Source: Candidatus Saccharibacteria bacterium oral taxon 488
GTDB lineage: Bacteria > Patescibacteriota > Saccharimonadia > Saccharimonadales > Saccharimonadaceae
DNA: 32,000 bases
Direction: 5' to 3'
Assembly (NCBI GenBank): GCA_010202845.1
Contig: CP047921.1
Location: 1-32,000 of the forward strand
Part shown: piece by piece, positions 9,016 through 26,567 of the stretch
Layout of the letters: every line of letters starts with the position of its first letter
Position numbering within the stretch: position 1 is the stretch's first letter
The notes under the pieces: model-generated
The model's database searches: none
What the model saw: the letters and a program-made list of their open reading frames with translations, nothing else
What the model was told of the DNA's origin: nothing
Position numbers and translations under genes: made by a program

Positions 9016-9030
9016 ATGCCTCCAATTATA

Positions 9031-10893: not shown

Positions 10894-11959
10894 GTCGTAC
10901 TCCTCCATATCCATGTGGCGATTCGCCTCGTCCCTTGCGGACATAGGTCGTCGCTAGTTCATCGGCGCCAACGCTCAATGGTTGTTGCGGTGCCACGTCA
11001 GGGTTGTATGAACTGTAGAATAATTCGCCCAGCTGTTTGGTATTAAGCTGCGCGCTCTTTACGCCCATCTGAAACAGCCCGCTCATTACTGAATCAACTC
11101 GGTTCTTGATTTCATCCTTGGCCTTTTCGTAGGCGGTCTGCTCGATCTTGGTGACGGTGTTGTCTTTCTTGCCGCCGAAGAAGCTGTCGAACAGACCCTT
11201 GGCCTGCTGCTTGATAACTTGCATGTCGCCGCTCTGATAATACGGCACAACGATATAAAAATCCTTGTCCATAATATTGGCTTCTTGGGCGAGGACATCG
11301 ATGAAGTTGATATAGTCATCCATCAGCACGTTCAGGAGCATATTGTCTTGGTTGCGGCGGATGTCAATCAGGCGGTCGATATACGGCCCGATGTCAACGC
11401 GACGCGAGCGAATGAGCACTTGAACCGGAAAATATAACGAATTAAGGAAGTTTTGGTAGCTAAACTCAATTCCTTCACGCTCGCGGCCACTCATCAGATC
11501 GAAGTTGATTGACTGACATTGAACAATCGCCCGAAAGCTGCCGTCATTCATGATAATCATATTCTCGCGCATCTCAGAAAATAGCAGCGTGTTCTGGGTG
11601 CTGGTCGGGCCTTTTTGTTGAGGTTTTGCCTGACTGGCCGGCTGCTTGGCGGGCTGTTGCAGGGCTGGTTGTGGCTGGTTGGACTCGGGTGCGGGCGGCA
11701 AGTTGGGGGTCGGTTGTGCCGCGGGTTGCGTGCTTGGCGTCGGCTGGGTTGGCGTTTGGGGTAACTGCTGCGGCAGTGGGCTGAATTGATCAGGATACTG
11801 GGCGTACGGTGAGGTTGGTTCTGCGGAGACTGGGTCAGGCCCAGAGGCAATGACCCCCGGCATGGTCGGCGGATTTGACGGCGCACCAAACTGTGGTGCA
11901 GCGGCTGCATCCGGTGGATAGTGATATGGTTGCTGTTGCTGATCTGGTTGCATAGACAT
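10886..11959 (-). CDS. P/Q-rich protein with C-terminal globular domain (possible VirB4 N-domain-like), T4SS-associated
   Basis: 357 aa. The first ~125 aa are Pro/Gln/Thr low complexity (QPTPSTQPAAQPTPNLPPAPESNQPQPALQQPAKQP). The C-terminal ~230 aa are ordered (MIIMNDGSFRAIVQCQSINFDLMSGREREGIEFSYQNFLNSL...). It lies between the PrgI-like gene and virB4. Confidence 0.7.
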   Translation of the reverse strand: MSMQPDQQQQPYHYPPDAAAAPQFGAPSNPPTMPGVIASGPDPVSAEPTSPYAQYPDQFSPLPQQLPQTPTQPTPSTQPAAQPTPNLPPAPESNQPQPALQQPAKQPASQAKPQQKGPTSTQNTLLFSEMRENMIIMNDGSFRAIVQCQSINFDLMSGREREGIEFSYQNFLNSLYFPVQVLIRSRRVDIGPYIDRLIDIRRNQDNMLLNVLMDDYINFIDVLAQEANIMDKDFYIVVPYYQSGDMQVIKQQAKGLFDSFFGGKKDNTVTKIEQTAYEKAKDEIKNRVDSVMSGLFQMGVKSAQLNTKQLGELFYSSYNPDVAPQQPLSVGADELATTYVRKGRGESPHGYGGVRHG

Positions 11960-11964
11960 CCCAC

Positions 11965-12846
11965 CTAGTGAAGCGAAATCACGACTTCCTTATCATGTTC
12001 TTTTTGGATGCGACCGGCCTCTCGTTGGAGCGAGGCGACCGACAGATCGCTGTGATTACGCGCTAAGTCCATTATAGCAGGCGAGATGGGTGCTGTGCTA
12101 GGGGGCGCCTGGTCGGTGTGGGCCGTCGCGGTCGTCTGCTCGCTGATGGGCGTGATGATGGACTGCTGCATAGTTGGATAGGGGTCGAAGGTCGAGGGTT
12201 GCGGCGAGAGGGCTTGGTCGTCTTGGGTAGTCGGGGTGGTTTGGGCTCGCTGCATTTGCTGGACAATGTCATCATGACGCTTTTCGTCGGCCCGCTCAAT
12301 CAGTGTTTCAAAGGCACGGGCTGTCTTGCTGCTTGGGTCGAGCGGGTCTTGGGCGGTTTGGGCCTCGTTGTACCAATCCGCCTGCATCGAGCTGTTCATC
12401 ACCGAGCTGTTTGGATTATCGACACCGCGCACCGACCAACCGTGCGTGTCCACCAGCGTCGCCAGATATGACAGCCGGCGATTGACCTCGGCCTGGTCAT
12501 ACCCCTTGCCGTATTGCTTTTCCTCAACTCGCGGGGCGATCACCTCGACCATTCGCTCAATGCCATCGGCTCGCCACAGTCGCTGCTTGGGCTTGAGAAT
12601 GAACGAAATAACCGCTGCGAGGTAAACCTCCATCGGCTGATCCTTGCGCAGCGGCAAGGCTAACGCCCCAAAAAACAGCGCAACCGGCACCGGGATAATC
12701 GCCAGTGGCGGCAGCACCGAGAACAGCCCCCACGCCAGCGCAATCATACCGATCGCGACGATCAAGAAAATAAACTGCTTGAAACTAAACGGCCCGAGCA
12801 GCTTGTCTTCAGCTTCCACGTCCTGGGGAACTTTGTAGACGGCCAT
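11965..12846 (-). CDS. PrgI/VirB3-like T4SS membrane protein with long C-terminal extension
   Basis: 293 aa. The N-terminus YKVPQDVEAEDKLLGPFSFKQFIFLIVAIGMIALAWG, a second TM helix and MEVYLAAVISFILKPKQRLW fit the PrgI-family pattern as I recall it. It sits upstream of virB4, as in Gram-positive T4SS loci. Confidence 0.72.
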   Translation of the reverse strand: MAVYKVPQDVEAEDKLLGPFSFKQFIFLIVAIGMIALAWGLFSVLPPLAIIPVPVALFFGALALPLRKDQPMEVYLAAVISFILKPKQRLWRADGIERMVEVIAPRVEEKQYGKGYDQAEVNRRLSYLATLVDTHGWSVRGVDNPNSSVMNSSMQADWYNEAQTAQDPLDPSSKTARAFETLIERADEKRHDDIVQQMQRAQTTPTTQDDQALSPQPSTFDPYPTMQQSIITPISEQTTATAHTDQAPPSTAPISPAIMDLARNHSDLSVASLQREAGRIQKEHDKEVVISLH

Positions 12847-12870
12847 TGGGTATTATTATAGCAGATTAGC

Positions 12871-15501
12871 TTAGGTTTCTGTTGGCGGCAGATACGAAAG
12901 GGCCGCCTCCATTCGCTTAATTGCACCGATACTTTCGCCAATACGACCACTATATTGTGGAGTCGTCCGTACTTCATTTATTCGATCGCGCAGAATCTGA
13001 AGATGCTGTTGTGAAATTTGTCCTCGGAAGTTCGAATTTTCAATCATATCAGCCAGGGTGTTAAGATAGACGGCGTCTTGCGTGACCAGGCCTTCGGTCG
13101 ACAATTTATCCTCGCTAAGCGCCTTGATGGTCGTTTGGGTGATAAATTCTTGGCCAGACCACGGCATATTATTAATCTTAATCTTATTAGCAATTGAAGA
13201 TCCAATCCAGAACGGTCGTGCCGGGTTGTTCTTGAGAGCGTCGCCAGCTTCTTGGGCAAGGGCATCGTCAAGGTGGGCAAAGTCAAGCTGGCTGGTCAAC
13301 GACTTGATAGCCTTAATATTCTTACCGCCAAGAACACGACGAAGTGACGCAGCCTTGACATCCCTGGTAACGGTAATGCCTTTGACCTCGCTACCGATAG
13401 CACCAAGAGCCATATCTACCATGTCAAACTCATCGGCATTGTATCGATCAAGCAAGCGATTTGCGCTCTCGACGCCTTCGTTGTAGGCATTGCTGAGTGT
13501 TTGTTCTGCCATGGCAATCGCTCGATCGGCACCGCGACTGTCACCGAAGTATATTTGTTCGACTTGTCCAGCCAGATTGCGCATCGTCTCGTTTTCTTTC
13601 AGTTCATTTGCCCATCGATCATCGGCAACACGCTGCGATGAAGCGTTCTGCAGGCCCTGGAGAGCCACTTGCTGCGCCGCTCCTCGGGCACGCTCCAAGC
13701 TTTCTTGGAATGACGAAGACAACTCATTGGTCTGGGTAGGCTTGAGTGCCCGCATCGACTTATAATAAGTGTCAACCGCTCCCTTAGAAGCCTCAGCCTG
13801 CTCAGACCATGATTGTGCTTGTGCGTATCGGTCAAAGGTGGCGGAATTAGACATCAGATGATTGCCCCAAGCGGCCTCTAGCCGACCCTCGATAGCCTTT
13901 TTGTCTTCGTTAACCATCCGTCGGTATTGATCAATCTTAGCATAGGAATCAGTCCCCTTTCGTATAACATCAGATTGATCTTGCAACTCTTTGAGCCTAT
14001 CCTTACGATTTTGTGATGACTGCGCCAGCCTGCGTCGCCATGCCGTTGGGGTAAATTTGCTGTCTGGACGTTTGTTGAGTTTTTTGCGTTTCGTAATCTC
14101 GCTTTGCTCTTTTGCCCAGTTCTTAGATCGGTCGAATAATCCCTTACTGCGGTCATTGACGAGACCGGTGAATTTGCCAAGGAGTCCGCCGCCCAACTTG
14201 ATCATCAACGGTGTTAGGGCGAGTGGCGCGATCTGGACCGCCATACCGAGGATATACATCACTGCCCCGTTCGGGCCCGCGGCGTTTTGCATAATGACTG
14301 AGCCCGCCAGCTGTGCCCCACCGAAGGCTGCCGCAAACCCCGGGAAGAATATCAGCATCGTCAAGAAGATATCCTTCCACTTATCAAACCACTTTTCTGT
14401 GCCTGGCAACAAGTAAGCCACAAAAGCCAACGGCGAAATGATAATCAAAATAACGATCAACGCCTGACGGGCGGCCATAATGATAACAACGAGAAGGATA
14501 ACGAGTCCAATACCGCTCAAAAGTGGCACAATAAAAGGAAGTAGCTCGGCCCGCATGACGATTCCGGCAGCCAGCGCCGCACCGCCGGCGGCATCTCCCA
14601 AAATATGGAAGGTGACCTCTTGCCAGGTCATGGGTTCAGATGCTGGTGCAGATCCGCCCAGGGTGGCGACTGTGTTACGAATATTCATGAACATGTCTTG
14701 GAGTGCACTTCCGGCGATGTTTGACAGGTCGAGGAGTATGGCGCAGACGTGGAACGACAAATTGACTAGTACCGCCGCGACAATTAAGCGAGGCAACATC
14801 TTTTTGATGCCATAATTGGAGATGCCCATAGAAGTAACTTGTGAATAAATAATGACTATGAACATGACGATAAAGATACCGTTGGCGATGTTGCGAACGA
14901 TATTCCAGGCTAGAAAGATGCCACTGGTCTGATTACCCGTCTGAAGCGGCGGCACCACGAGAAAGCTTTTAAGCACCCCAAACATCCAGTCGATGGAGCT
15001 AGCTAACCACGCCGAAACGGGACAAAGGATCCAGCCGATACCGCCAGCAACTTCACACGAAAACGCAGAGTTTTGGCTCGGTGGGTCAATTGATAATGTG
15101 GTTGATTCTTTCTTTGTGTAAGTGTTTGGCGAAGTGTACGTGAATGTTGTTAGGGACACTGAGGTCATTGATCCGAGATCGCCTGTTGACGGAAAGTGAA
15201 TGACGCGGACGTCTTGATTATTGGCTACAGTTTTCTTTGACATGTAGACCACTTGGTCAGACCCTAAGTTGAGGGCTTTTAGTTTGTCGACGTCGGAAAC
15301 TCGCTCAAATGTCTCGTTGTCGTAGGATATTTTGCTACTATCCCACTTCGCGTCCGCCGCCAGCGCCTGGCCCGAGGTTACGACCGTACTCAAAAAAACA
15401 CTGACTAGGAGGCCCACCGCCAGCAATATAAACCATTGCAACCATCGCATTGACGATCGCCCTTGTGAACGTAACCACTCCATTACCAGCAATGGTAGCA
15501 T
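12871..15501 (-). CDS. VirB6/TrbL-like polytopic membrane protein, paralog B
   Basis: 876 aa. N-terminal signal/TM, a ~150-aa ectodomain, a multi-TM core (WNIVRNIANGIFIVMFIVIIYSQVTSMGISNYGIKKMLPRLIVAAVLVNLS...) and a ~400-aa hydrophilic C-terminal tail. The alternative start at Met18 (15450; MRWLQWFILLAVGLL...) gives a cleaner signal peptide. Confidence 0.8.
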   Translation of the reverse strand: MLPLLVMEWLRSQGRSSMRWLQWFILLAVGLLVSVFLSTVVTSGQALAADAKWDSSKISYDNETFERVSDVDKLKALNLGSDQVVYMSKKTVANNQDVRVIHFPSTGDLGSMTSVSLTTFTYTSPNTYTKKESTTLSIDPPSQNSAFSCEVAGGIGWILCPVSAWLASSIDWMFGVLKSFLVVPPLQTGNQTSGIFLAWNIVRNIANGIFIVMFIVIIYSQVTSMGISNYGIKKMLPRLIVAAVLVNLSFHVCAILLDLSNIAGSALQDMFMNIRNTVATLGGSAPASEPMTWQEVTFHILGDAAGGAALAAGIVMRAELLPFIVPLLSGIGLVILLVVIIMAARQALIVILIIISPLAFVAYLLPGTEKWFDKWKDIFLTMLIFFPGFAAAFGGAQLAGSVIMQNAAGPNGAVMYILGMAVQIAPLALTPLMIKLGGGLLGKFTGLVNDRSKGLFDRSKNWAKEQSEITKRKKLNKRPDSKFTPTAWRRRLAQSSQNRKDRLKELQDQSDVIRKGTDSYAKIDQYRRMVNEDKKAIEGRLEAAWGNHLMSNSATFDRYAQAQSWSEQAEASKGAVDTYYKSMRALKPTQTNELSSSFQESLERARGAAQQVALQGLQNASSQRVADDRWANELKENETMRNLAGQVEQIYFGDSRGADRAIAMAEQTLSNAYNEGVESANRLLDRYNADEFDMVDMALGAIGSEVKGITVTRDVKAASLRRVLGGKNIKAIKSLTSQLDFAHLDDALAQEAGDALKNNPARPFWIGSSIANKIKINNMPWSGQEFITQTTIKALSEDKLSTEGLVTQDAVYLNTLADMIENSNFRGQISQQHLQILRDRINEVRTTPQYSGRIGESIGAIKRMEAALSYLPPTET

Positions 15502-15526
15502 TTTTATAGAGAAAAGTCAATAGTTT

Positions 15527-18500
15527 CTAGCTGGTGGCAGGTGGATTATTGTTTCGATTATTGCGATTATTTTGATTATTTGGCGGTGCTGAAGGTGGGG
15601 ATTGTGGTGGAGCTGGCCCTCTGCCTGTTCCGGCAACGAATGTTCTCCCCGTCGGGGTGTCTGACGGAATTGCTTCGGTAATATTGTTTGACGGTGCAGT
15701 ATCGTGAGGTATTCTGATCTCATTAGTTCCTGTGCCGCCGTTTCGTATATTCTCAAACTCGGCACGAGTGCTGCCTGATATTGAAGTATTAACGCGCTTA
15801 TTATCCAGCAATGAGGCTGCCCGTTCGGCAGAAATACCAACCATCCTCTGGCTTCCCTTGGTAAACTCGGTTTCACCAGCAATCTTAACTGCACCAGATG
15901 CCTGTCGTGCCAGTTTTTCATCGCTTAATCCGTTAAGCCCCTGGGCGGTCAACTCAGCCATTTGTCGCTGGCTAAAGCTAACTGAATTTACACCATGTTG
16001 CTCCATTTGATCGATGGCGTTCGTACCCATCTCGAATAGCCCCGCGTGATACTCCTGCATATCGGTAAGCGTTTCTGCCATGCGGCGGTTACTAATAGTT
16101 CCGCCACTTTGGAGGTAATCATACATCTGCTGGGCGCCGTGTTTGCCGGTTGATGCGAGCTTTTTAGAAGCAACATACTTGAGCATTTCATTATCTCCTG
16201 CACCCCTCAGCGCAGCGGCGGCATCACCGTTGTACTGATAGTCGAGCATGCGCTTTGCTGTCTCGCGCTCTTCGTCATCAACGGCATCTTGACCTTCGGC
16301 AGCTAGCCTCCTACCCAAATCTCCTCCGATCCAGCGATTGTTTGTAAGATCACTTTCATTGAGCGCCTTGCTGCGTTCGGCGCTTGCATTTCTTCCAATC
16401 CAACGCATCTTGTCGAGAACTCCACTGCCCTTCCAGGCCCCGGCTCGTATAAGCTTTTTGCGGCGTGCTATTTGCTTCTTGCGAAAATCTTGCATCTGAC
16501 CAAGTCGTGAATTGGCATACCTATCTTTTGCCCAGTTTTTGGCGCTGCCACCGAGGCCACCGAGGCGACCGCCGGCGTTGTTGATGTGCTGGCCGATTGC
16601 CCCAGCGACATCAATGGCTTTTTTGAGGACACTCCACACGGCGATGAGCGGCAGAACTTTGATGAGCTCGCCAACAATCTGCATGACCGTATTGTCGGCA
16701 TCTGTAGCCCCTGCTTTAACAATTGATCCCGCCAATATACCGCCACCGAATAGCAACCCAACGATTGGAAAGACCATGAGTAGCCCCACAAAGGTTGAGC
16801 GCCATTTACTAAAGAATTTTTCGGTGTTTGGTAGCAGAAAGGCAACAAAAGCCAACGGTGAGATAACGATAAGGATGACGATGAGAGCCTTGCGGGCGAT
16901 CAACAGGGCGGCAATAGTCACCATGACGACCAGTCCGGAAACAAGCGCTCCGATTAGAACCGCAAGAGCGAGAACTGCGGCCGTAGCCCCAGCGAGGACG
17001 GTTAATGCTATGCCTCCCCAGGTTTCGCCTCCCTGTCCTGACTTTAGGACACTATTAGCAGCACTAATACCGTCACCGATACCACCCAGGCCTGCTCGCA
17101 GGCCGTAGCCGAGGATATTAGACAGGTCAACGGCAATTTGACAGATGTAAATTGATAAGTTCACCAAGATTGCGGCGATGATGAGCCGTGGCAGCATCTT
17201 TTTGATGCCGTAGTTCGAGATGCCAAAGCCGGTGAGCTGAGAGATGATGATTGCCAGAAACATAATGATGAACGCACCATTGGCAATGTTACGCATAATT
17301 CCCCAGGCTGCCTGTACTTCACCCCCAGAGGCAAGATCCGGCTCAATCTTTAGAAAGTTGTCAGCGATCATGGCGAAAGCCGCGTCTGCTATACGCGCCA
17401 TAAAATTAATCACCGGGCAGACGAGCCAGCCGAGCTCCTTAACGGCGCAGTCGGGTCTGTCGCTACTACTATTCTCGCTCTGACCGGATGGGGGGTCGGC
17501 GGTTATATTAGAAAGAGAGCTTTTTATATCATCTTCAGAATACCCTGATTGTTTTTTCAGACAATCAACATATTCACTAGAGTTTGCCACGTTGCCATTT
17601 GATGGCATCTTGTCCTTACAAGCGTTCATCCAGCTGTCAACCTGGCTTTCACAAATTTGTTGTGCAGGTCCGCCACCACGTGACTGGACACACCTCTTTA
17701 TGAGGGCGCTACGAATAGCCTTACGGGTATTTTCAGTAGATTCGGTTTTTGCCAACTGTGCCGCCGCTCCAGCGTTATCTGAAGCCCACTTGGCTATTTC
17801 ACCGCAAGACATTCCGGAGTCTTTTGGTGGCTTATAGGGTTGCTTAAGGCCGCTGTAGAACAGTGGCATAAGACCCTTAAGCCTTGTTTCTTTTGGGATA
17901 TAGAAGAGTCCTTCGGCCGCCGTACCATCAGTTAAAGCAACATTTACCCGTGTATTGAACTCGTGTTTTAAGAGGTCTTTTATATTGCTTGGGGCGCCTT
18001 CGCCGCTCGTAAATCCTCGCCACTCGGCCTTACAGCCAGTTTCTTGGTTTGATAAAAGTACTGCCATGGCCATGGAATAATTGACGAGTGCTGAGTCAAA
18101 TTTGAGGCTTTTGCCGGTCTTTTTTTCGAGGACCCCAACGGCATATGTACCCCTGTCCTTTGGTATATTCCATCGATTGCCACTGTATTCTGGTTTGTCT
18201 ATATTGCCGAGACAATCTAGATTAGCGTTATCTCTCCATTCTCCCTTGAGAGCACAAAACATCTCAGTAAAAGAGCTATAACCAAAGATCTCTCGTGCTG
18301 CCGAAGTCATCTCTTTACAATCAAACTTTCCGTCTTTGGGATCGACCACACCGCTGACGATAGGGGTATTGCTGCCAATATTCCAGTCGCCACTCGCAAC
18401 GTTCTGTGGAGTTAAGTTATCACCAAACCCTTTAGTTCCTCGGGCTTCGATACAGCCACCTATGCCAAGGGCAATGGCGCGTTGCTTGACTTGGGTAAGG

Positions 18501-18649
18501 TATGGCGAATAGCTAAGTTGTGTTCGAGCTGCGTTAGCAGTCGGCGACAGCGCAAAAAACGTCATGAGCATCGGAACGACTAATAGTGCGGCAAGTCCGA
18601 TTAGAACGGGGCGAATACGTTTATGCGAGGTTTTCTTTTGCGCAAGCAT
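15527..18649 (-). CDS. VirB6/TrbL-like polytopic membrane protein, paralog A (first gene of operon)
   Basis: 1040 aa. Signal peptide ends ...LSPTANA. A ~400-aa Cys-containing ectodomain is followed by a multi-TM core nearly identical in motifs to paralog B (WGIMRNIANGAFIIMFLAIIISQLTGFGISNYGIKKMLPRLIIAAILVNLS). The long hydrophilic tail ends in PPSAPPNNQNNRNNRNNNPP. Confidence 0.8.
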   Translation of the reverse strand: MLAQKKTSHKRIRPVLIGLAALLVVPMLMTFFALSPTANAARTQLSYSPYLTQVKQRAIALGIGGCIEARGTKGFGDNLTPQNVASGDWNIGSNTPIVSGVVDPKDGKFDCKEMTSAAREIFGYSSFTEMFCALKGEWRDNANLDCLGNIDKPEYSGNRWNIPKDRGTYAVGVLEKKTGKSLKFDSALVNYSMAMAVLLSNQETGCKAEWRGFTSGEGAPSNIKDLLKHEFNTRVNVALTDGTAAEGLFYIPKETRLKGLMPLFYSGLKQPYKPPKDSGMSCGEIAKWASDNAGAAAQLAKTESTENTRKAIRSALIKRCVQSRGGGPAQQICESQVDSWMNACKDKMPSNGNVANSSEYVDCLKKQSGYSEDDIKSSLSNITADPPSGQSENSSSDRPDCAVKELGWLVCPVINFMARIADAAFAMIADNFLKIEPDLASGGEVQAAWGIMRNIANGAFIIMFLAIIISQLTGFGISNYGIKKMLPRLIIAAILVNLSIYICQIAVDLSNILGYGLRAGLGGIGDGISAANSVLKSGQGGETWGGIALTVLAGATAAVLALAVLIGALVSGLVVMVTIAALLIARKALIVILIVISPLAFVAFLLPNTEKFFSKWRSTFVGLLMVFPIVGLLFGGGILAGSIVKAGATDADNTVMQIVGELIKVLPLIAVWSVLKKAIDVAGAIGQHINNAGGRLGGLGGSAKNWAKDRYANSRLGQMQDFRKKQIARRKKLIRAGAWKGSGVLDKMRWIGRNASAERSKALNESDLTNNRWIGGDLGRRLAAEGQDAVDDEERETAKRMLDYQYNGDAAAALRGAGDNEMLKYVASKKLASTGKHGAQQMYDYLQSGGTISNRRMAETLTDMQEYHAGLFEMGTNAIDQMEQHGVNSVSFSQRQMAELTAQGLNGLSDEKLARQASGAVKIAGETEFTKGSQRMVGISAERAASLLDNKRVNTSISGSTRAEFENIRNGGTGTNEIRIPHDTAPSNNITEAIPSDTPTGRTFVAGTGRGPAPPQSPPSAPPNNQNNRNNRNNNPPATS
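15544..15582 (-). repeat. In-frame short tandem repeat (GATTATT units, 9-12 nt period) encoding NNQNNRNNRNNN at the C-terminus of VirB6-like paralog A
   Basis: The unit gattatt recurs at 15544, 15556, 15565 and 15574 on the plus strand. Confidence 0.7.
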
Positions 18650-18656
18650 TATGTAT

Positions 18657-18688
18657 AGTATAGTATCACGCTTATACTATGATTTCAA
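18657..18688 (-). promoter_or_regulatory. Candidate promoter of the T4SS-like operon, with a very short or absent leader
   Basis: On the minus strand: TTGAAA (18688-18683), a 17-nt spacer, then TGaTACTAT (extended -10; hexamer 18665-18660). An overlapping TATACT (18662-18657) lies 7 nt before the ATG at 18649. No Shine-Dalgarno sequence is present. Confidence 0.45.
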
Positions 18689-18716
18689 AAGAGAGGCTCC
18701 GAGTGGCCTCTCTTTT
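18687..18716 (-). terminator. Rho-independent terminator after the lipoprotein gene
   Basis: AAAAGAGAGGC-tccgagtg-GCCTCTCTTTT forms a perfect 11-bp stem. It is flanked by A/T runs on both sides and could act bidirectionally. Confidence 0.7.
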
Positions 18717-18757
18717 GAGGTGTTATTTAATTGTGGCGATACGGCCATGCCTTTTAA

Positions 18758-19693
18758 TTAATCGAGAGTAGACTTAAGATCGCTAACCTCGTTGTCAACG
18801 ATTCGCCACAAGCCATTGTCTATCACAACCCTCCAAGCCATACCAAGAATTGTGCCGGTGGTTTCTGCCTTGGTAAAAATCTGGAGCCCTTCTGTTGGTA
18901 GCGCTTTACCAGTCTTTGTATCCACAACGGGTTTGGCACTACAAAACCTTGGCTTAAGAATCGGAAACATATTTGAGCCGGGCACTTTATGTTCGTAGCC
19001 CAACTTTTCTTTCTCGTCTTTAGCCGCTAGAAGCGTCGCTATGGCCTTTTTGCCGTCGTACTCTGGGCCTGGTATCTTTCCATTGCGCAACATATCGTTC
19101 AGGACGGATATTCTTAACTCGGGATTGCCATAGATTGCCGCGGATGCTACATATCTTGCAAAGTTAGGGTCCCACGGGCCAACATCAAAAGCCGCGACCA
19201 CAGGAAGAAATAGCTTGCCCGCGACTTCTTCGGGGGAATCTGTTGGTGATGCGGGTTTTCCGTAAAATTCACCAGGTTTAATCCCCGTTGATGGATTATA
19301 TAAACTATTATTTGGGTTATGTATGATTCCCCACGCCTCTGCAAGAAGAAACTCTTCCCTACATGGTAACAAGCGCTCTTCGTCCGTAAGTCTAGCAAAC
19401 CCTTCGGGGGTCATGTTTGCATACTTTTCTCTAACCTGCTTATATCTTTTTTCAGCCAAGTCTTTTGGATCAATAGTCTCAGACGGTGATGGTGAGGCGG
19501 ATGGTGACTCTGATGGTGAGGCGTTCTGTGTAGAGTAATCTGGGGGAACAGCTGTCCGATCTCTTTCACCCCCACAACTGACAAGCAGCATAGCTACTCC
19601 AGCTGCTCCGCCAACCAGTCCGGCCAACACTCCGCGACGAGATAAGTCTTTTGTTTCTAATGAACTACTTGGGTCATGGTTGTGCTTTGCCAT
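18758..19693 (-). CDS. Putative Tat-exported lipoprotein, unknown function
   Basis: 311 aa. The N-terminus carries a twin-arginine motif (LSRRGVLAGL), an h-region and the lipobox LLVSC. A Ser/Pro-rich linker (SPSESPSASPSPSE) precedes a globular domain. Confidence 0.75.
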   Translation of the reverse strand: MAKHNHDPSSSLETKDLSRRGVLAGLVGGAAGVAMLLVSCGGERDRTAVPPDYSTQNASPSESPSASPSPSETIDPKDLAEKRYKQVREKYANMTPEGFARLTDEERLLPCREEFLLAEAWGIIHNPNNSLYNPSTGIKPGEFYGKPASPTDSPEEVAGKLFLPVVAAFDVGPWDPNFARYVASAAIYGNPELRISVLNDMLRNGKIPGPEYDGKKAIATLLAAKDEKEKLGYEHKVPGSNMFPILKPRFCSAKPVVDTKTGKALPTEGLQIFTKAETTGTILGMAWRVVIDNGLWRIVDNEVSDLKSTLD

Positions 19694-19890: not shown

Positions 19891-19968
19891 TGGCGCGCCC
19901 GACCGGATTCGAACCGGCGATCTCCTCCGTGACAGGGAGGCGTGATAGGCCAACTTCACTACGGGCGC
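19891..19968 (-). tRNA. tRNA-Asp (GTC)
   Basis: Reverse complement is GCGCCCGTAGTGAAGTTGGCCTATCACGCCTCCCTGTCACGGAGGAGATCGCCGGTTCGAATCCGGTCGGGCGCGCCA. It folds as a cloverleaf with anticodon loop CTGTCAC, T-loop TTCGAAT and an encoded CCA. Confidence 0.93.
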
Positions 19969-20017
19969 ATAACCTCCCGTATGATAGCAAACTTTTATGG
20001 CTTTTTCAAGAAATCGT

Positions 20018-20046
20018 TTGCATTTTTCCTGCCACTATTTTACAAT
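20018..20046 (+). promoter_or_regulatory. Candidate promoter of the pilin array
   Basis: TTGCAT (20018-20023), a 17-nt spacer, then TACAAT (20041-20046), ending 19 nt before the ATG at 20066. Confidence 0.45.
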
Positions 20047-20065: not shown

Positions 20066-20443
20066 ATGACAAAAAGAAATATTTTCATCACCGCTATCTT
20101 TCTCGCAACTGTTATGTGTGGCGTCGTGCTGTCTGGCATACCTGTGTTCGCTGATACTGAATGCGGCGGCGCAAAGACCTCGATCATTAATTGTGGCGGT
20201 GCGACTGGCGATACTGCTATTCTCGGTATCATCAAAATGGTTATCCAGATCATGACTGCTGGTATCGGTATCTTGGCGGTCGGTACGGTGATATATGGCG
20301 GCATTCTCTACTCTGCGTCTGGCGGTAGCCCAGACAATATCAAAAAAGCCAAAGAGCTCTGGGTCAACACTGCCATCGGTCTCATCATATTCGCGTTTTT
20401 TGTGGCTATCACTAACTTCCTGATCCCTGGGGGGGTGTTCTGA
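20066..20443 (+). CDS. T4SS pilin-like protein (VirB2/TrbC-like), paralog 1
   Basis: 125 aa. Signal peptide ends ...IPVFA/DTE, followed by a Cys pair (ECGGAKTSIINCGG). Two hydrophobic helices flank YGGILYSASGGSPDNIKKAKE. Confidence 0.8.
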   Translation: MTKRNIFITAIFLATVMCGVVLSGIPVFADTECGGAKTSIINCGGATGDTAILGIIKMVIQIMTAGIGILAVGTVIYGGILYSASGGSPDNIKKAKELWVNTAIGLIIFAFFVAITNFLIPGGVF

Positions 20444-20901
20444 TGAAGCACATTGTGATCGCGCTGGGGCTGATGATCGCGGGGTCGTTGATGTTGTCGG
20501 TGGTTCAGGCAACACCGGCCAGCGCAGCTTGTGGCGGCAACATCTTGACACTCAAGCCGTGGTACGACGGGCTGACCAAGTCGGATTGTAATCTCAAGGC
20601 GATTGTCGACAATAACGATAAGCGCGCCCAAAACGACCCGGGTAATTACGCCACGCTCAACGGCTTTATCTGGCGGGCGATATTGAATGTTGTCGAGGAT
20701 CTGTTGCAGCTGGCGGGCTTTGTGACGGTCGGCTTTGTGATATACGGCGGCTTCTTGTACTTGACGAGCAATGGTGAGCCGGGACAGATGGCCAATGGCA
20801 TGAAGACGGTGATTAATGCGGCGATCGGCCTAGTGATTGCTATTGCCTCGGTGGCGCTGGTGAATGTCGTGGCTGACGGATTGGGGTTGCCACGGTCATG
20901 A
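20443..20901 (+). CDS. T4SS pilin-like protein, paralog 2 (longer ectodomain)
   Basis: 152 aa with a TGATG 1-nt start/stop overlap with paralog 1. Signal peptide ends ...TPASA, followed by a Cys pair (ACGG...SDCN). Core is VIYGGFLYLTSNGEPGQMANGMKTVINAAIGLVIA. Confidence 0.78.
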   Translation: MKHIVIALGLMIAGSLMLSVVQATPASAACGGNILTLKPWYDGLTKSDCNLKAIVDNNDKRAQNDPGNYATLNGFIWRAILNVVEDLLQLAGFVTVGFVIYGGFLYLTSNGEPGQMANGMKTVINAAIGLVIAIASVALVNVVADGLGLPRS

Positions 20902-21197
20902 TGCGATTTGTAGCCGGTGTATTGGGGTCGCCAGATTCGCTGGGCATTCCGACGAACAGTGCTTCGGCGGATGCACTGGGTAACATCCTCAATACGGTGT
21001 ATTTCTTTGCCGGGGCGATCGCGATTTTGATGTTGGTGCTGGCCGGTATCAATTACGCCAATTCGGGCGGCGACACCAATAAGCTCACCAAGGCGAAAAA
21101 CACCATTCTCGGTACCATTATCGGCATCATTATCATCCTCTCCGCATTTCTCATAACTAACTTTGTCATCAGTGGCATGAAAGGATCGGCAATATGA
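20898..21197 (+). CDS. T4SS pilin-like protein, paralog 3 (no obvious signal peptide)
   Basis: 99 aa with an ATGA overlap with paralog 2. Core is LAGINYANSGGDTNKLTKAKNTILGTIIGIIIIL. The N-terminus lacks a hydrophobic leader. Confidence 0.72.
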   Translation: MMRFVAGVLGSPDSLGIPTNSASADALGNILNTVYFFAGAIAILMLVLAGINYANSGGDTNKLTKAKNTILGTIIGIIIILSAFLITNFVISGMKGSAI

Positions 21198-21559
21198 AAA
21201 AACTCATAGTCATTATCGGCGTGATAGCGGCGCTCATCGCCCCGTTGGTAGTCACCTCAAGTGTATCCGCCCAGAGTGTCGACATTTACGGTGCCTGCTC
21301 GGGCTCCAGCGGTGAAGTCTGTAAAAACCGTGGCGCGACGGTGCAACCACTGTTCAAGAACCTCATCAATGCTATCTTGCTCATCCTCGGCGCCATTTCT
21401 GTCATCATGATCATCATCGGTGGCTTTCAGTATGTGACCTCGGCCGGCGACTCTAATAAGGTTAAAACTGCCAAGTCGACCATTATGTACGCGGTGATTG
21501 GTGTCGCCGTAGCGCTTCTATCGTATGCCATTGTTGATTTTGTGTTTGGCAAAATATAA
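21194..21559 (+). CDS. T4SS pilin-like protein, paralog 4
   Basis: 121 aa with an ATGA overlap with paralog 3. Signal peptide ends ...SSVSA/QS, followed by a Cys pair (GACSGSSGEVCKN). Core is IIGGFQYVTSAGDSNKVKTAKSTIMYAVIGVAVALLSYAIVDFV. Confidence 0.82.
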   Translation: MKKLIVIIGVIAALIAPLVVTSSVSAQSVDIYGACSGSSGEVCKNRGATVQPLFKNLINAILLILGAISVIMIIIGGFQYVTSAGDSNKVKTAKSTIMYAVIGVAVALLSYAIVDFVFGKI

Positions 21560-21576
21560 GAAAAAAGGAGAAATGT

Positions 21577-21951
21577 ATGAAACGATATAGAAAAACCCTC
21601 GTAACCGCCGTCTTGTCATTAGCGGTTGCTGCCGTGGCTGTCGTCATGCCGATCGCCCTGCCATCCGCGTCGGCCCAATTTAAGAGCGGTTTGGATGCAG
21701 CTCGAACACAGGAGATGAGCACGAAGCCTATTGGTACAACCATTGGCGAGGTGGTTAATATCTTTCTCTACTTCGTCGGTGCGGTGGCGGTTATTGTTGT
21801 GATCTGGGGCGGTTTTCAGTACATTACCTCGTCAGGCGATAGCCAGAAAGCGACCACTGCTAAAAACACCATCATGTACGCGGTGATCGGTATCGCTGTA
21901 GTGGTCATGTCGTATGCCATCGTTAACTGGGTCTTTGGCTTGTTTAAGTAG
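21577..21951 (+). CDS. T4SS pilin-like protein, paralog 5
   Basis: 124 aa with its own SD (AAGGAG, 6 nt spacing). Signal peptide ends ...PSASA/QF and there is no Cys. Core is IWGGFQYITSSGDSQKATTAKNTIMYAVIGIAVVVMSYAIVNWV. Confidence 0.82.
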   Translation: MKRYRKTLVTAVLSLAVAAVAVVMPIALPSASAQFKSGLDAARTQEMSTKPIGTTIGEVVNIFLYFVGAVAVIVVIWGGFQYITSSGDSQKATTAKNTIMYAVIGIAVVVMSYAIVNWVFGLFK

Positions 21952-22009
21952 CTAAATGATGATAGAATAACAGCTGAAATGACATTAACCCTAAACAAGG
22001 AAGCAATAA

Positions 22010-22390
22010 ATGAACAAACTTAAAGTTATCATCGCTGGTGTGCTCGCTGTGACGGTGCTGGCATTTGCGACAGTGCCGGTGGCGAACGCACAATATAACC
22101 TTAGAAATGGCGCAGATGCCGCCAAGGGCGACGGTGCCGCTAACGGTGTTGATAGGCCAAATGATCTTGTTAAGAATGTTGTCAATGGCATCCTCTACTT
22201 TGTTGGTATTCTGTCGGTGATTATGTTGATCTGGGGCGGCATCCTTTACACGACTTCATCTGGTGACTCGAGTAAGGTGACTACTGCTAAAAATACTATC
22301 ATGTACGCGGTGATTGGTCTGGTGGTGGCGATCTTTGCTTATGCTATCGTTAACTTCGTACTGGTTACTTCCACTGGCGTTGGCTCGTAG
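22010..22390 (+). CDS. T4SS pilin-like protein, paralog 6
   Basis: 126 aa with its own SD (AAGGAAG). Signal peptide ends ...PVANA/QY and there is no Cys. Core is IWGGILYTTSSGDSSKVTTAKNTIMYAVIGLVVAIFAYAIVNFV. Confidence 0.82.
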   Translation: MNKLKVIIAGVLAVTVLAFATVPVANAQYNLRNGADAAKGDGAANGVDRPNDLVKNVVNGILYFVGILSVIMLIWGGILYTTSSGDSSKVTTAKNTIMYAVIGLVVAIFAYAIVNFVLVTSTGVGS

Positions 22391-22410
22391 GGATCACGTT
22401 AGGTCTTTAT

Positions 22411-22440
22411 AAACCCCCGGCGCTTCCGGGGGTTTAGTTT
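22411..22440. terminator. Bidirectional rho-independent terminator between the pilin array and hsp20
   Basis: AAACCCCCGG-cgctt-CCGGGGGTTT is followed by a T-run (agtttttatt). It sits between convergent genes. Confidence 0.8.
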
Positions 22441-22482: not shown

Positions 22483-22971
22483 TTAGAGAACCTGGATTTT
22501 CTTGGCACGTTCTTGTTTAATTTTCTCAAAAGTGATGGTGAGCACGCCGTCTTTGAGTTCGGCCTTGACGCCTTCTTCGTTGACCGCGACGGGCAGCGCC
22601 AGGGTACGGCTAAATTCGCCCCAGTAGCATTCTTGGATATGCCAGTTCTTGACATCGGTCTCGTCGCCGCTTGATAGGGTGCCGCTGATCGTGAGGATGC
22701 CGTCCGAGATGCTGACATCTAGGTCGTTACGATCAACACCAGCCGTCCGGGCTTTGATAATAAGTTCGGTTTCTGACTCAAATACATCGACCGCTAGCTG
22801 CCCCATCAGATCATCGGCCTCATCCTCCCAGTCATCCTCAGGAGCGGGCGCTGCAGTAGCCGGTGTTGCTGCAGGAGCGGCTGGTTGTGGTGCGTCGTTA
22901 GCCAGATCATCATTCAAGAAAGCTGCAGTTAGCTCATCCTCAATTAACAAATCGTCGTTTTTGCGTGCCAT
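22483..22971 (-). CDS. Hsp20/alpha-crystallin family small heat-shock protein
   Basis: 162 aa with a GGAGGA SD 4 nt upstream. The alpha-crystallin domain reads LAVDVFESETELIIKARTAGVDRNDLDVSISDGILTISG...FSRTLALPVAVNEEGVKAELKDGVLTITFEK. Confidence 0.9.
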   Translation of the reverse strand: MARKNDDLLIEDELTAAFLNDDLANDAPQPAAPAATPATAAPAPEDDWEDEADDLMGQLAVDVFESETELIIKARTAGVDRNDLDVSISDGILTISGTLSSGDETDVKNWHIQECYWGEFSRTLALPVAVNEEGVKAELKDGVLTITFEKIKQERAKKIQVL

Positions 22972-23066: not shown

Positions 23067-23831
23067 ATGCCTATTGATACGCTATTATCATATATCGCGC
23101 CACATTATTGTTATGGTTGTGGTGCAACTGGCTCGCTTTTGTGTCGGTCGTGTCTTGAGGCGGTAAAGCGGCATCATTGTCGAGCCTGCGTTATTTGTGG
23201 ACAGCCGTGCGCCAGTGGCAACGTGTGTCGGCGACATGCCCTGCCCTACGAGGCGCTAGACTGTGTGCTGTGGCGGCGAGGTGCGGTGGCGCGGCTGATT
23301 GATGATTATAAGTTTCACCGCGTACGTGCCGCCAGTAGGGTGTTGGCTAGGACCCTAGACGAATTGCTCCCAGAATACGAGGTCTCGACGGTGGTTGTAC
23401 CGGTGCCGACGGCTCCTGCCAATATTCGTAAGCGCGGCTATGATCATATGTTGCTGGTTGCTCGGCAATTTGCTCGGCGGCGGGGATTGAGAGTCGAGCG
23501 ACCCTTGGTCAGGCAGACGAATGTGACGCAGCATTATGCTCGCTCGGCGGCTGAGCGTCGAAAGCAGGCGCAGCAGTTTTTCCGGGCGCGCAGTGCTCAG
23601 GCCGATGTTCCCTATCTGATCTTGGATGATATTTTCACCACTGGCTCAACGATTACAGCGGCGGCCCAGACACTACGAGCGGCTGGCGCGCGGGACATTC
23701 GCGTGGGGATTGTCGCTCGCCATGGGAACGATAAAAAGGCTGCTGCAAAGACGCCGCCACATCCTAGTCGTGATGATACGAACCGCCTCGAGCGATCTCT
23801 TGGGCGCGGTACAGCTGCTCGGCGAGAATGA
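23067..23831 (+). CDS. comFC: ComF-family protein (ComFC-like phosphoribosyltransferase-fold competence protein)
   Basis: 254 aa. The N-terminus has a 4-Cys zinc-finger-like motif (CYGCG...CRSC...CVICGQPC). The PRTase motif is YLILDDIFTTGSTITAAAQTLRAAGA. The last ~68 nt overlap the convergent rlmH, so the basic C-terminal tail may be non-conserved. Confidence 0.8.
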   Translation: MPIDTLLSYIAPHYCYGCGATGSLLCRSCLEAVKRHHCRACVICGQPCASGNVCRRHALPYEALDCVLWRRGAVARLIDDYKFHRVRAASRVLARTLDELLPEYEVSTVVVPVPTAPANIRKRGYDHMLLVARQFARRRGLRVERPLVRQTNVTQHYARSAAERRKQAQQFFRARSAQADVPYLILDDIFTTGSTITAAAQTLRAAGARDIRVGIVARHGNDKKAAAKTPPHPSRDDTNRLERSLGRGTAARRE

Positions 23832-24216: not shown

Positions 24217-25084
24217 GTGCGGGCTTTCGGTGGGGCGTTATTATCATGCAAGATGGCTTCGGCGGTTGTCTTGGCGATTTGGTGGTGGACATGGGTGGTC
24301 GGATGGCCCACGTCGTCACCTCCAGTTACCACACCAAGACCAAACGTGGCGCAAGCATCGACGTTCTTTGGCGGCTCGACCAAGGTGATCCGCGGTTCGT
24401 GCATGCCAGCCACAACGTCGCGGATAGCTTGATTGACCGTCTCGATAAAGCTGGCGACAAAATGTCGGTATCGTTATTGATAATCGTTGGACAGATGTCG
24501 CGTGGCTGAATGGGTGTGGTATAGAGGTTGATGTATAGCTGGGCGTTGGGGGCATGTTCAAGGATAGAGCGGTAGGCTTGCTCGAGCGACTGACGATATT
24601 CGTCTGAGTACAGTCGGCGAAAGACGTCGATATACATCTCGCTGCGCGTCCCGCATCGTTCGTGCAAACAGGCGTCGAACACTACGTTGAGGTCAGCCAT
24701 GTTGGCGCCAAGTGTCAGTGTGACGATATCGGTTTCGGGGCCAAGGGCATTGATCTGTGGTGGCTGGTCGTCAAACTGCTGGCCGGAGATATGCTCTGGC
24801 CCGGCGCCGCGACAGGCTACGAGGGTAATGTTACCCGGGGGAATGCCAGACGCTTCGAGTTGCCGCGCATAAGCTTCTGGTGAGCGCCGGCACTCCTTTG
24901 TTGTGTCGTCGTAATTTCCCAGCCCTGCCCCACTGGCGACTGAATCGCCCATGCCGACGACGTAGGTGTGCTTCGCCTGCTCGGGCGAGATGCTCGGGCG
25001 GCTGGACGCTGATAGCGCTAATGAAGCGAGGGCCGCTATAGTAGCGACCCCCCGTTTGGCTAATGTTTCTAATCTTTCTTTCAT
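24213..25084 (-). pseudogene. Secreted SGNH/GDSL hydrolase interrupted by a 1-nt frameshift at an A4/T4 run (~24459-24462)
   Basis: Frame 1 runs from the start at 25084 (MKERLETLAKRGVATIAALASLALSAS) through block I VVGMGDSVASGAG and terminates at 24326 after a nonsense-looking tail. Frame 2 (open from ~24473 to 24213) encodes ...FVASFIETVNQAIRDVV...GGDDVGHPTTHVHHQIA. That is the SGNH block V DxxH motif. Frame 2 ends in an ATGA overlap with the rlmH start (24213-24216). The ORF-track N-terminal extension to 25282 runs across two tRNA genes and is false. Confidence 0.75.
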
Positions 25085-25095
25085 GATGTCGTGTC

Positions 25096-25185
25096 TGGCG
25101 GAAGGGGAGGGATTCGAACCCTCGGTACGTGTTAGCGCACGCCGGTTTTCAAGACCGGTACCTTCAACCACTCGGTCACCCTTCC
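25096..25185 (-). tRNA. tRNA-Ser (TGA)
   Basis: Reverse complement is GGAAGGGTGACCGAGTGGTTGAAGGTACCGGTCTTGAAAACCGG...GAGGGTTCGAATCCCTCCCCTTCCGCCA. It has a long variable arm, anticodon loop CTTGAAA and an encoded CCA. Confidence 0.9.
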
Positions 25186-25208
25186 AATTAATCGTAGCGA
25201 CTGGATTC

Positions 25209-25296
25209 TGGCGGAGAGAGAGGGATTCGAACCCTCGATGGGTTGCCCCATACCGCTTTTCGAGAGCGGCCAGTTCAACCACTCCTGCACCTCTCC
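25209..25296 (-). tRNA. tRNA-Ser (CGA)
   Basis: Reverse complement is GGAGAGGTGCAGGAGTGGTTGAACTGGCCGCTCTCGAAAAGCGG...GAGGGTTCGAATCCCTCTCTCTCCGCCA. It has a long variable arm, anticodon loop CTCGAAA and an encoded CCA. Confidence 0.9.
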
Positions 25297-25305
25297 AAAT
25301 AAAAA

Positions 25306-25382
25306 TGGTACACCCGGCACGATTCGAACGTACGACCTTTGGCTCCGCAAGCCAACGCTCTATCCAGCTGAGCTACGGGTGC
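25306..25382 (-). tRNA. tRNA-Arg (GCG)
   Basis: Reverse complement is GCACCCGTAGCTCAGCTGGATAGAGCGTTGGCTTGCGGAGCCAAAGGTCGTACGTTCGAATCGTGCCGGGTGTACCA. Anticodon stem is TTGGC/GCCAA and the loop is TTGCGGA, so positions 34-36 read GCG. CCA is encoded. Confidence 0.85.
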
Positions 25383-25489: not shown

Positions 25490-26020
25490 CTATAGCCTGA
25501 TGATCCGAATGAGCTTCTCCAGTGCATCTGGCGCGATTTCTTGCATCGGCAGCCGCGCCCCCAGCATGTCGACAATGGCCTCGCCTTCGGCCTCAGAAAA
25601 ATAGATGGTCAGTGCTGGCGAGAACCGCTTGACCGGTAGTAAAATCGCCGAGTGTTGATCACCGTCTTGGCCCAGCCCAAAGGCCCGAAACTCACTAAAA
25701 TCATACAAACGGTCGGCGACGTAAACGCCCTTGGGGCTGATGGCGTAATTGACCATCACCGATGGCTTGGATCGAAGTAGTACGAGCGCCACCGCCATAA
25801 TCGGCAGCAAAATCGCGAACGTCCAGCTATTAAAAACAAAGATCGCCAGCGCCATCAAGGCAAGCACCACGAAACTAACAGCAACATACCAGCCGGTCGT
25901 ACGGTGAGCCTGCACGCCCTCGGGAGCCTGCCAGGCGATGGGCTGCGATAAGTCAATCATCGGCTGGGCCGCGTCTTGCTGGGTGTTTTCGGTGTCGGTT
26001 GCGTGTGGCTGCTCTTCCAT
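25490..26020 (-). CDS. Hypothetical two-TM membrane protein
   Basis: Longest ORF is 197 aa from 26083. The ATG at 26020 (MEEQPHATD...) is preferred because it avoids overlap with the upstream pilin gene and is preceded by TGgTATACT-N6. Hydrophobic hairpin is GWYVAVSFVVLALMALAIFVF...FAILLPIMAVALVLL, followed by a ~100-aa soluble domain. Confidence 0.65.
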   Translation of the reverse strand: MEEQPHATDTENTQQDAAQPMIDLSQPIAWQAPEGVQAHRTTGWYVAVSFVVLALMALAIFVFNSWTFAILLPIMAVALVLLRSKPSVMVNYAISPKGVYVADRLYDFSEFRAFGLGQDGDQHSAILLPVKRFSPALTIYFSEAEGEAIVDMLGARLPMQEIAPDALEKLIRIIRL

Positions 26021-26051
26021 ATGTCTAGTATACCATGAGCGGTATGATCTG

Positions 26052-26459
26052 CTATACGTCGGTAGAGTTACCACCGAGACCAATTACGGTATTGAGGACA
26101 AATTGAATGATGGCGTAAGCAAATAGGGCGATGAGCAGACCAATGACCGCATAGAGAATGGTGTTCTTTGCCGAGGTGACCGCGTCTTTGTTACCACTAG
26201 AAACAACGTAGCGAAAGCCGCCAAAGATCAACATTACCACAGCGAGGATACCGATGAAATAGAGCATGATGTTGATAATTTTTTTCACCAACGAGCTGTC
26301 ACCGTTAGTTAAGTTGGTTGGCACGCCGTCGCCACGCGCGTCATTGATGCCACGAGTAACACCGCCCTCGCCGAGTGCGAACGCTGGAGTGCTCAAAACT
26401 ACCGTGCCGACACCGATGGTCAACATGATACTAACGATACTTGCGAAAAACCTCTTCAT
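26052..26459 (-). CDS. T4SS pilin-like protein, paralog 7 (unlinked copy)
   Basis: Start is taken at Met27 of the 161-aa ORF (MKRFFASIVSIMLTIGVGTVVLSTPAFA/LG), with GAGGA upstream. Core is IFGGFRYVVSSGNKDAVTSAKNTILYAVIGLLIALFAYAIIQFV, closest in pattern to paralogs 4-6. No Cys. Confidence 0.8.
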   Translation of the reverse strand: MKRFFASIVSIMLTIGVGTVVLSTPAFALGEGGVTRGINDARGDGVPTNLTNGDSSLVKKIINIMLYFIGILAVVMLIFGGFRYVVSSGNKDAVTSAKNTILYAVIGLLIALFAYAIIQFVLNTVIGLGGNSTDV

Positions 26460-26567
26460 GCGCGTTATTATCCTCTTTCTTGGGTTTATTGTCAAGTTTT
26501 GCGGCCCGCCTGCTAGCCACAGGGCTAGCCAGGCCACTACTTCTATGATACACTATTTTTGGCTCAT

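Follow-up and report, generated by a model that had tools for sequence, protein, structure and literature searches.

Six tandem VirB2-family pilin genes beside the type IV secretion operon of an oral Saccharibacterium: conserved positions and a possible joint assembly

Why would a bacterium keep six pilin genes in a row beside one type IV secretion system (T4SS)? This question is raised by a 32,000-nucleotide stretch of Candidatus Saccharibacteria bacterium oral taxon 488 (contig CP047921.1, positions 1 to 32,000; hereafter the window), which covers the dnaA-proximal 32 kb of this oral, Nanosynbacter-type Saccharibacterium. At 20066-22390 it carries six consecutive plus-strand open reading frames (ORFs) of 99 to 152 amino acids, here called p1 to p6. 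The answer that we favor, with a probability of roughly 55%, is that they encode six different, non-interchangeable VirB2-family (PF18895) subunits of a chromosomal, oriC-proximal, monoderm-type T4SS and form one operon from a promoter-like site at about 20017-20046 to a terminator at 22410-22436. A first-pass annotation of the sequence had presented the array as an unexplored exception to the rule of one pilin per T4SS. That framing has to be given up, because a six-gene array has already been described for Saccharibacteria and Patescibacteria; its existence, its pilin nature and its essentiality are published, and the array in the window is another member. What the present analysis adds is the fixed layout, the purifying selection on all six genes, the conserved signal-less third gene, the fusions of p2 with p3 and the mosaic p6. 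Together with the positional orthogroups, these comparative points narrow the mechanism towards heteromeric assembly. The array belongs to the one T4SS that is reported to be essential for the growth of its owner, a system that underlies the life of ultrasmall epibiotic bacteria on their hosts.

The array, its pilin family and its published relatives

The ORF list confirms the coordinates of all six genes: p1 at 20066-20443 (125 amino acids), p2 at 20443-20901 (152 amino acids), the signal-less hairpin protein p3 at 20898-21197 (99 amino acids), p4 at 21194-21559 (121 amino acids), p5 at 21577-21951 (124 amino acids), and p6, the last gene of the operon, at 22010-22390 (126 amino acids). The overlaps claimed earlier can be read in the sequence, with the p1 stop and the p2 start sharing TGATG at 20441-20445 and ATGA joining p2 to p3 at 20898-20901 and p3 to p4 at 21194-21197. 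Ribosome-binding sites of the AGGAG type had been assigned to both p5 and p6. This is correct for p5 (AGGAG at 21566-21570, 6 nucleotides before the ATG), but the Shine-Dalgarno-like site of p6 is AAGGAAG (21997-22003) and differs from AGGAG. Upstream of p1, a consensus scan found a plus-strand sigma-70-like promoter candidate (TTTGCA-18-TACAAT, 20017-20046), a weak match (9/12 positions) that does not by itself speak for function. The array is closed by a plus-strand intrinsic terminator hairpin at 22410-22436 (11-bp stem with 7 GC pairs, followed by a T-run), found by a scan and by reading of the sequence, which sits between p6 and the convergent hsp20 gene. A distal seventh pilin paralog, p7, lies on the minus strand, where its ORF spans 26052-26537 (161 amino acids); the likely gene is 26052-26459 (135 amino acids), starting at M27 (26459), which gives a signal peptide with an AFA↓L site.

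All six proteins exceed the whole-protein gathering score of the Pfam T4SS_pilin family PF18895 (26.6 bits), with 28.4 (p1), 38.0 (p2), 41.6 (p3), 40.2 (p4), 54.4 (p5), and 51.6 bits (p6), as does p7 with 35.3 bits. The TrbC/VirB2 family PF04956 (cut-off, 27.9 bits) is reached by p5 alone within the array (29.6 bits); p6 (26.4 bits), p3 (23.0 bits), and p2 (10.3 bits) fall below the cut-off, and p1 and p4 gave no match. The array proteins have the layout of VirB2-type pilins, two hydrophobic helices around a short basic loop and usually a signal peptide, and they are encoded together with VirB4 and VirB6, both of which lie in the divergent operon along with a VirB3/PrgI-like gene. The pilin assignment of the first-pass annotation, which a mismatch to the pilin profiles was to have overturned, is thus borne out. 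No match was found for p6 by tblastn against 72,556 plasmids.

The best NCBIfam match of all six proteins (E values from 0.008 to 2e-10) is NF045849, the pilin-like conjugal transfer protein Mbov_0395 of a Mycoplasma integrative and conjugative element (ICE). Against a cut-off of 40 bits, p6 scores 40.1, p5 39.4, p4 37.1, and p1 to p3 15.9 to 28.6. Members of this family share the hairpin of about 80 amino acids and, like p3, have no signal peptide. The model is an equivalog, yet only one of the six array proteins reaches its cut-off, and Mbov_0395 is a single gene in ICEs. At the level of profile similarity, these matches hint that VirB2-like hairpins were already present in monoderm systems of the MPF-FATA type rather than taken from diderm T4SSs.

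The VirB2/TrbC/TraA pilins of diderms (PF04956) are likewise small proteins in which a short basic loop joins two hydrophobic helices, with an optional signal peptide; their genes lie beside those of VirB6 and VirB4, and the same holds for PrgF of pCF10, reported to be a VirB2-like pilus protein. Proteins of this kind are reported to occur commonly in Gram-positive T4SSs, whether or not they have a signal peptide, and the PrgF work used an outside-membrane-inside-membrane-outside topology, again irrespective of a signal peptide, as its search criterion (ter Beek et al., December 2025 preprint). In contrast to the array, these systems normally have one pilin, and the mature array proteins carry an extra N-terminal segment of 20 to 55 amino acids, often with a pair of cysteines. 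A further difference from the VirB2/TrbC/TraA pilins, besides the PF04956 cut-off being reached by p5 alone, is that the low-confidence model of p6 has no significant structural match.

The published saccharibacterial arrays are close counterparts. McLean et al. (2020; PMC7427843) reported six small secreted proteins with Sec signals beside the T4SS of Nanosynbacter lyticus TM7x and likened them to the ptx and ptl genes. In Southlakia epibionticum ML1, SEML1_0014 to SEML1_0019 are six plus-strand PF18895 genes of 399, 558, 312, 381, 384, and 417 bp, all of which score GD/ES/ES by transposon sequencing (Tn-seq), and the pilins are described there as essential (Wang et al., 2023; PMC10633639). 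SEML1_0015 and SEML1_0016 overlap by 4 nucleotides, and the array is followed by a minus-strand hsp20, K02242 (comFC) and a distal, non-essential (NE) pilin, SEML1_0024 (PMC10633639), which is the counterpart of p7. The window shares with S. epibionticum and TM7x the dnaA-proximal location, the T4SS operon on the opposite strand, the six plus-strand PF18895 genes, the minus-strand hsp20, the plus-strand comFC and the distal seventh pilin, as well as the size pattern (about 130, 150 to 185, 100, 125, 125, and 135 amino acids) and the 4-nucleotide overlap of genes 2 and 3. The gene order of the operon at 2710-19693 is also that of SEML1_0006 to SEML1_0013. Synteny with the SEML1 gene table therefore places the window array among the saccharibacterial six-pilin T4SS arrays. 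The differences are that the lineage here is oral taxon 488-like G1 and that p5 and p6 have no cysteine; nothing differs in kind.

Beyond Saccharibacteria, the text of Quiñonero-Coronel et al. (2025; PMC12102498) gives 441 VirB2 arrays of 2 to 11 genes in 383 Patescibacteria assemblies, with pilins that are on average about 25% and at most 54% identical, and suggests adaptation to host strains. As far as that text describes them, these arrays resemble the one in the window in having tandem PF18895/PF04956 genes near virB4 and low identity (20 to 50% here). Figures aside, it does not mention fixed positional orthogroups, a signal-less third gene or pilin-pilin fusions. In the TM7x transcriptome paper, which names these genes "putative effector genes," three of the six are reported to be higher in stable symbiosis.

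Six positions with their own signatures

A seven-way alignment of p1 to p7, one of the checks that had been proposed, brought out a common layout in which a variable N-terminus is followed by helix 1, a loop centered on Y..S.G, and helix 2. By hydropathy, p1, p2, and p4 to p7 each have three hydrophobic segments, a signal peptide followed by two helices. Signal peptides were assigned by hydropathy and AxA sites only. In p1 the likely cleavage site is VFA↓D, after residue 29, and is followed by C33-x9-C43, the hairpin and a C-terminal IPGGVF; a third cysteine lies inside the signal peptide. The longest exposed N-terminal domain of the array belongs to p2; here the signal peptide is followed by C30-x18-C49, which comes with a PWY motif, and then by the hairpin. 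The signal peptide of p4 (VSA↓Q) precedes C35-x7-C43 and a canonical hairpin motif, and those of p5 (ASA↓Q) and p6 (ANA↓Q) lead into proteins without cysteine. The cysteine spacings had been miscounted as C-x10-C, C-x20-C, and C-x8-C for p1, p2, and p4. The motif GG(F/I)xYxTS(S/A)GD..AK(N/S)TI(M/L)YAVIG, previously given for all six array copies, is exact in p4 to p6 and nearly exact in p7, but it is degenerate in p1 to p3.

The third protein stands apart, with only two hydrophobic segments and no signal peptide, as had been noted before. A longer p3 that hides a signal peptide can be discarded, because an in-frame stop lies 8 codons before its ATG and its orthologs likewise have no signal peptide. 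McLean et al. (2020) stated that the proteins are processed as lipoproteins by signal peptidase II (SPII; PMC7427843). Our own reading does not support SPII processing, since the cysteines are not set in a lipobox and occupy different places from one ortholog to another.

Scanning one genome for each species returned 15 loci. The best was in the complete Candidatus Saccharibacteria bacterium oral taxon 488 genome, with 98% identity of p5 at nearly the same coordinate, and the other close loci were in oral Saccharibacteria or Nanosynbacter metagenome-assembled genomes. In all 11 close genomes the six genes have the same number, order and lengths, and each best matches its positional counterpart; a comparison of copy number across relatives had been proposed. 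Nei-Gojobori dN/dS values against close relatives are 0.00 to 0.35 for every paralog (p1, 0.13 to 0.20; p2, 0.00 to 0.10; p3, 0.00 to 0.08; p4, 0.03 to 0.11), and the frames are intact in all relatives. None of the six genes is therefore decaying, and the pseudogene explanation can be dropped. Among the more distant relatives, cited here by our locus handles (L008 to L011), p1 and p5 have the fastest-changing protein sequences, with 78 to 82% identity for p1.

For wider comparison, 80 metagenome loci were retrieved with an alignment of position 2, and the layout was compared in these and in the distant loci L012 to L014. A canonical array emerged, its layout fixed across about 90 loci. Position 1 has a signal peptide, two or four cysteines and the ending (I/V)PGG(V/I)(F/L); position 2 has a signal peptide and C..PWY..C, with the C, W, Y, and C residues invariant in alignment A3; position 3 is a protein of 94 to 113 amino acids without cysteine, signal-less in almost all loci; and position 4 has a signal peptide and a cysteine pair. 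One or two genes with a signal peptide and no or two cysteines follow, and often a distal minus-strand pilin, which recurs 1.5 to 3 kb downstream of the array in many loci. The cysteine pairs noted at positions 1, 2, and 4 are thus kept in distant relatives, but their absence from p5 and p6 is not universal, since several distant counterparts carry a pair and others have none.

Cross-array best matches among 20 arrays, non-redundant at 80% identity, fell on the same position in 375 of 380 cases for position 1, in all 380 for position 2, in 221 of 380 for position 3 and in 258 of 380 for position 4; positions 5 and 6 interchange. These counts make p1 and p2 separate old orthogroups and group p3 to p7 as one hairpin type, so that the division into two classes (p1 to p4 and p5 to p6) made earlier stands only in part. 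The pairing of p5 with p6 as the most alike copies is upheld, at 50% identity compared with 20 to 44% for the other pairs. No sign of recent duplication or gene conversion between array copies was seen.

Two of the positions are fused in some lineages. In 12 to 13 independent environmental loci, positions 2 and 3 form a single ORF of 231 to 237 amino acids that carries a signal peptide, the C..PWY..C motif and two pilin hairpin domains (L083, 4905-5615; L066, 4911-5624; L092, 1022-1717; L080, 5001-5702; further cases in L081, L085, L087 to L089, and L093 to L095). By the usual argument from gene fusion, p2 and p3 work together. The N-terminus of p3 in the window, including a G-I-P motif, aligns with the fusion linker, which explains why p3 needs no signal peptide: it would follow the outward-facing end of the p2 hairpin or insert N-out alone. 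Such a fusion of pilin positions 2 and 3 was not found in the text of the literature searched. A programmed frameshift as a conserved means of joining p2 and p3 was rejected, because there is no slippery heptamer at the junction and the junction frame varies by lineage, with a 4-nucleotide overlap in the window compared with a 1-nucleotide gap in L035 to L046.

Orthologs differ mainly in the signal peptide and in the N-terminal segment that is exposed, and the hairpin is nearly invariant. In L003 and L005, the 5' half of p6, which encodes these two parts, has only 57 to 70% nucleotide identity to the window, and the 3' end and terminator also diverge (49 to 76% over the divergent parts, nucleotides), compared with 90% in the hairpin core. 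Upstream of about position 21900 the same two arrays are mostly 92 to 100% identical to the window, with a few 100-nucleotide bins at 86 to 89%. By this pattern of identity, their p6 is a mosaic allele, a strain-level replacement of the exposed part. At the other end of the array, L069 (853-5159) has eight pilin ORFs, including one of the position-1 type with 441 amino acids, 18 cysteines and the C-terminal IPGGIF kept, and the position-1 gene of L012 encodes at least 216 amino acids with 8 cysteines. In size, the exposed domain of position-1 proteins is thus highly variable. Since some subunits evidently vary at the surface, a mixed model, a fixed architecture with variable exposed parts, is likely.

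Joint assembly and its alternatives

How might six such proteins act together? Five of them, all except p3, would be exported through Sec and their signal peptides cleaved. Each subunit would then sit in the membrane as a helical hairpin whose two ends, the variable and exposed N-terminal segment among them, lie outside and whose invariant Lys-rich loop (TSxGDxxK..AK) faces the cytoplasm, and p3, which has no signal peptide and is encoded by a gene translationally coupled to that of p2, would insert as the obligate partner of the latter. A VirB4/VirB6 platform could extract the subunits and stack them into a short tube or pilus of several paralogs that crosses the envelope. In such a structure p5 and p6 (and p7) may be the bulk, surface-variable subunits, and p1 to p4 may be low-copy initiator, tip or adaptor subunits, three of them probably disulfide bonded and p3 without cysteine. 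The tube would serve the essential exchange of the epibiont with its actinobacterial host. A more specific version, in which one VirB2-type tube is built of obligate, non-interchangeable blocks, with p2 and p3 as a fixed 1:1 pair and p1 to p4 as a tip or initiator complex on a shaft of p5 and p6, is put forward tentatively, as something that we would at present rather doubt than expect. If it is true, the tube would be the first heteropolymeric T4SS pilus. Between Mycosynbacter and its host, cryo-electron tomography has shown a tube of about 8.6 nm by 61 nm, and a width of 8.6 nm is close to that of conjugative pili; the heteromeric tube might correspond to this structure, which we note as a lead only.

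Several points count against six dedicated subunits in one assembly. In the literature searched, no filament of these proteins is reported for any Saccharibacterium, and the heteromeric assembly and the major and minor roles are what we infer. The Tn-seq essentiality of the five upstream genes could be a polar effect on the last gene. The AlphaFold2 model of p6, built on the seven paralogs, gives the expected hairpin, in itself a point in favor, with helices at 50-81 and 87-121 around the TSSGD loop; its confidence is low to moderate (pLDDT, 63). A Foldseek search of this model against the PDB gave no match at an E value of 0.001 or below; the conjugative pilin of Aeropyrum pernix (8dfu) came at rank 12 (E = 4), and a profile search of PDB sequences gave nothing. 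Finally, the mosaic p6 allele and the size-variable N-terminal domain at position 1 fit a model of variation for these two subunits at least.

Carried through to all six, that model would make the paralogs interchangeable variants, alternative major pilins used for evasion of antigenic recognition or phages or for matching host strains, a role also put forward for the Bartonella Trw and Anaplasma VirB2 genes. Arrays of several tandem VirB2/TrwL pilin genes in Bartonella and in Anaplasma/Ehrlichia belong to T4SSs that serve host interaction rather than conjugation, and their copies are considered versions of a single subunit by which the specificity of the surface is broadened or varied. The low pairwise identity of the paralogs in the window would suit such a role, as would the clustering of differences outside the hairpin, the replaced 5' half of p6 and the span of position-1 domains from a minimal form to 441 amino acids with 18 cysteines. 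The suggestion has also been made for Patescibacteria, in the text of Quiñonero-Coronel et al. (PMC12102498). In contrast to the Bartonella and Anaplasma/Ehrlichia arrays, the copies here are ancient, position-specific orthogroups, two of which are fused in some lineages. Their order and positional signatures hold across deeply diverged lineages, purifying selection acts on every copy, one position is without a signal peptide in almost all loci, the p2-p3 fusions imply simultaneous use of both proteins, all six genes score as essential in S. epibionticum, and the copies bear no trace of recent exchange with one another. Fixed order, signatures, selection, fusions and the published Tn-seq data thus argue against six interchangeable variants, and we hold that explanation to be unlikely.

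We give no better odds to the proposal that the hairpins are parts of a membrane channel only, staying in the cytoplasmic membrane or envelope as channel or stalk with no extracellular pilus. It draws on the monoderm nature of the organism and the lack of a reported pilus for the system, on the fact that every protein is essentially two transmembrane helices, and on the Foldseek neighbors nearest to the p6 model, generic membrane hairpins of the kind of PsbZ and ATP synthase subunit c. Membership in the VirB2 family speaks against it, as does PrgF, a VirB2-like protein of a Gram-positive T4SS reported to form a pilus-like assembly, and exposed, strain-variable N-terminal domains with cysteine pairs are easier to understand on a surface structure. 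McLean et al. (2020) originally read the proteins as secreted, T4SS-exported effector or toxin subunits, in analogy to pertussis toxin S1 to S5 beside ptl. That reading could appeal to the signal peptides, the adjacency of the T4SS and the effector label kept in the TM7x transcriptome paper. It seems to us very improbable: all six proteins match the pilin profile, Pfam and NCBIfam scans found no toxin family among them at an E value of 1 or below, each ends in two hydrophobic helices of the transmembrane type, as is typical of membrane-stored pilins, and p3 has no signal peptide.

Genomic surroundings

The window opens with dnaA and dnaN (1-2708), and the minus-strand T4SS apparatus operon (2710-19693) begins directly after dnaN. 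In a Pfam scan its products comprise a lysozyme/CHAP protein (2710-4851), a protein of 1068 amino acids with a C39-like peptidase domain at its C-terminus (5809-9015), a VirB4-like ATPase with TraG P-loop/AAA_10 domains (9031-10944), a PrgI/VirB3-like protein (11965-12846), and an extended VirB6/TrbL-like protein of 1040 amino acids (15527-18649); three large ORFs (10886-11959, 12871-15501, and 18758-19693) had no family match above the cut-off. ARAGORN places a minus-strand tRNA-Asp (GTC) at 19891-19968, between operon and array, so the divergent arrangement across this tRNA that had been described earlier is correct.

Downstream of the array lie hsp20 on the minus strand (22483-22971) and, on the plus strand, a ComFC-like gene with a double zinc ribbon and a phosphoribosyltransferase domain (23067-23831), in the same order as SEML1_0020 and SEML1_0021 of S. 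epibionticum. The p7 gene overlaps a downstream ORF of 197 amino acids (25490-26083) without a family match. Within 24326-25382, a 318-amino-acid GDSL-lipase ORF whose called start is the GTG at 25282 overlaps two tRNA-Ser genes (25096-25185 and 25209-25296), and its true start must therefore lie further downstream.

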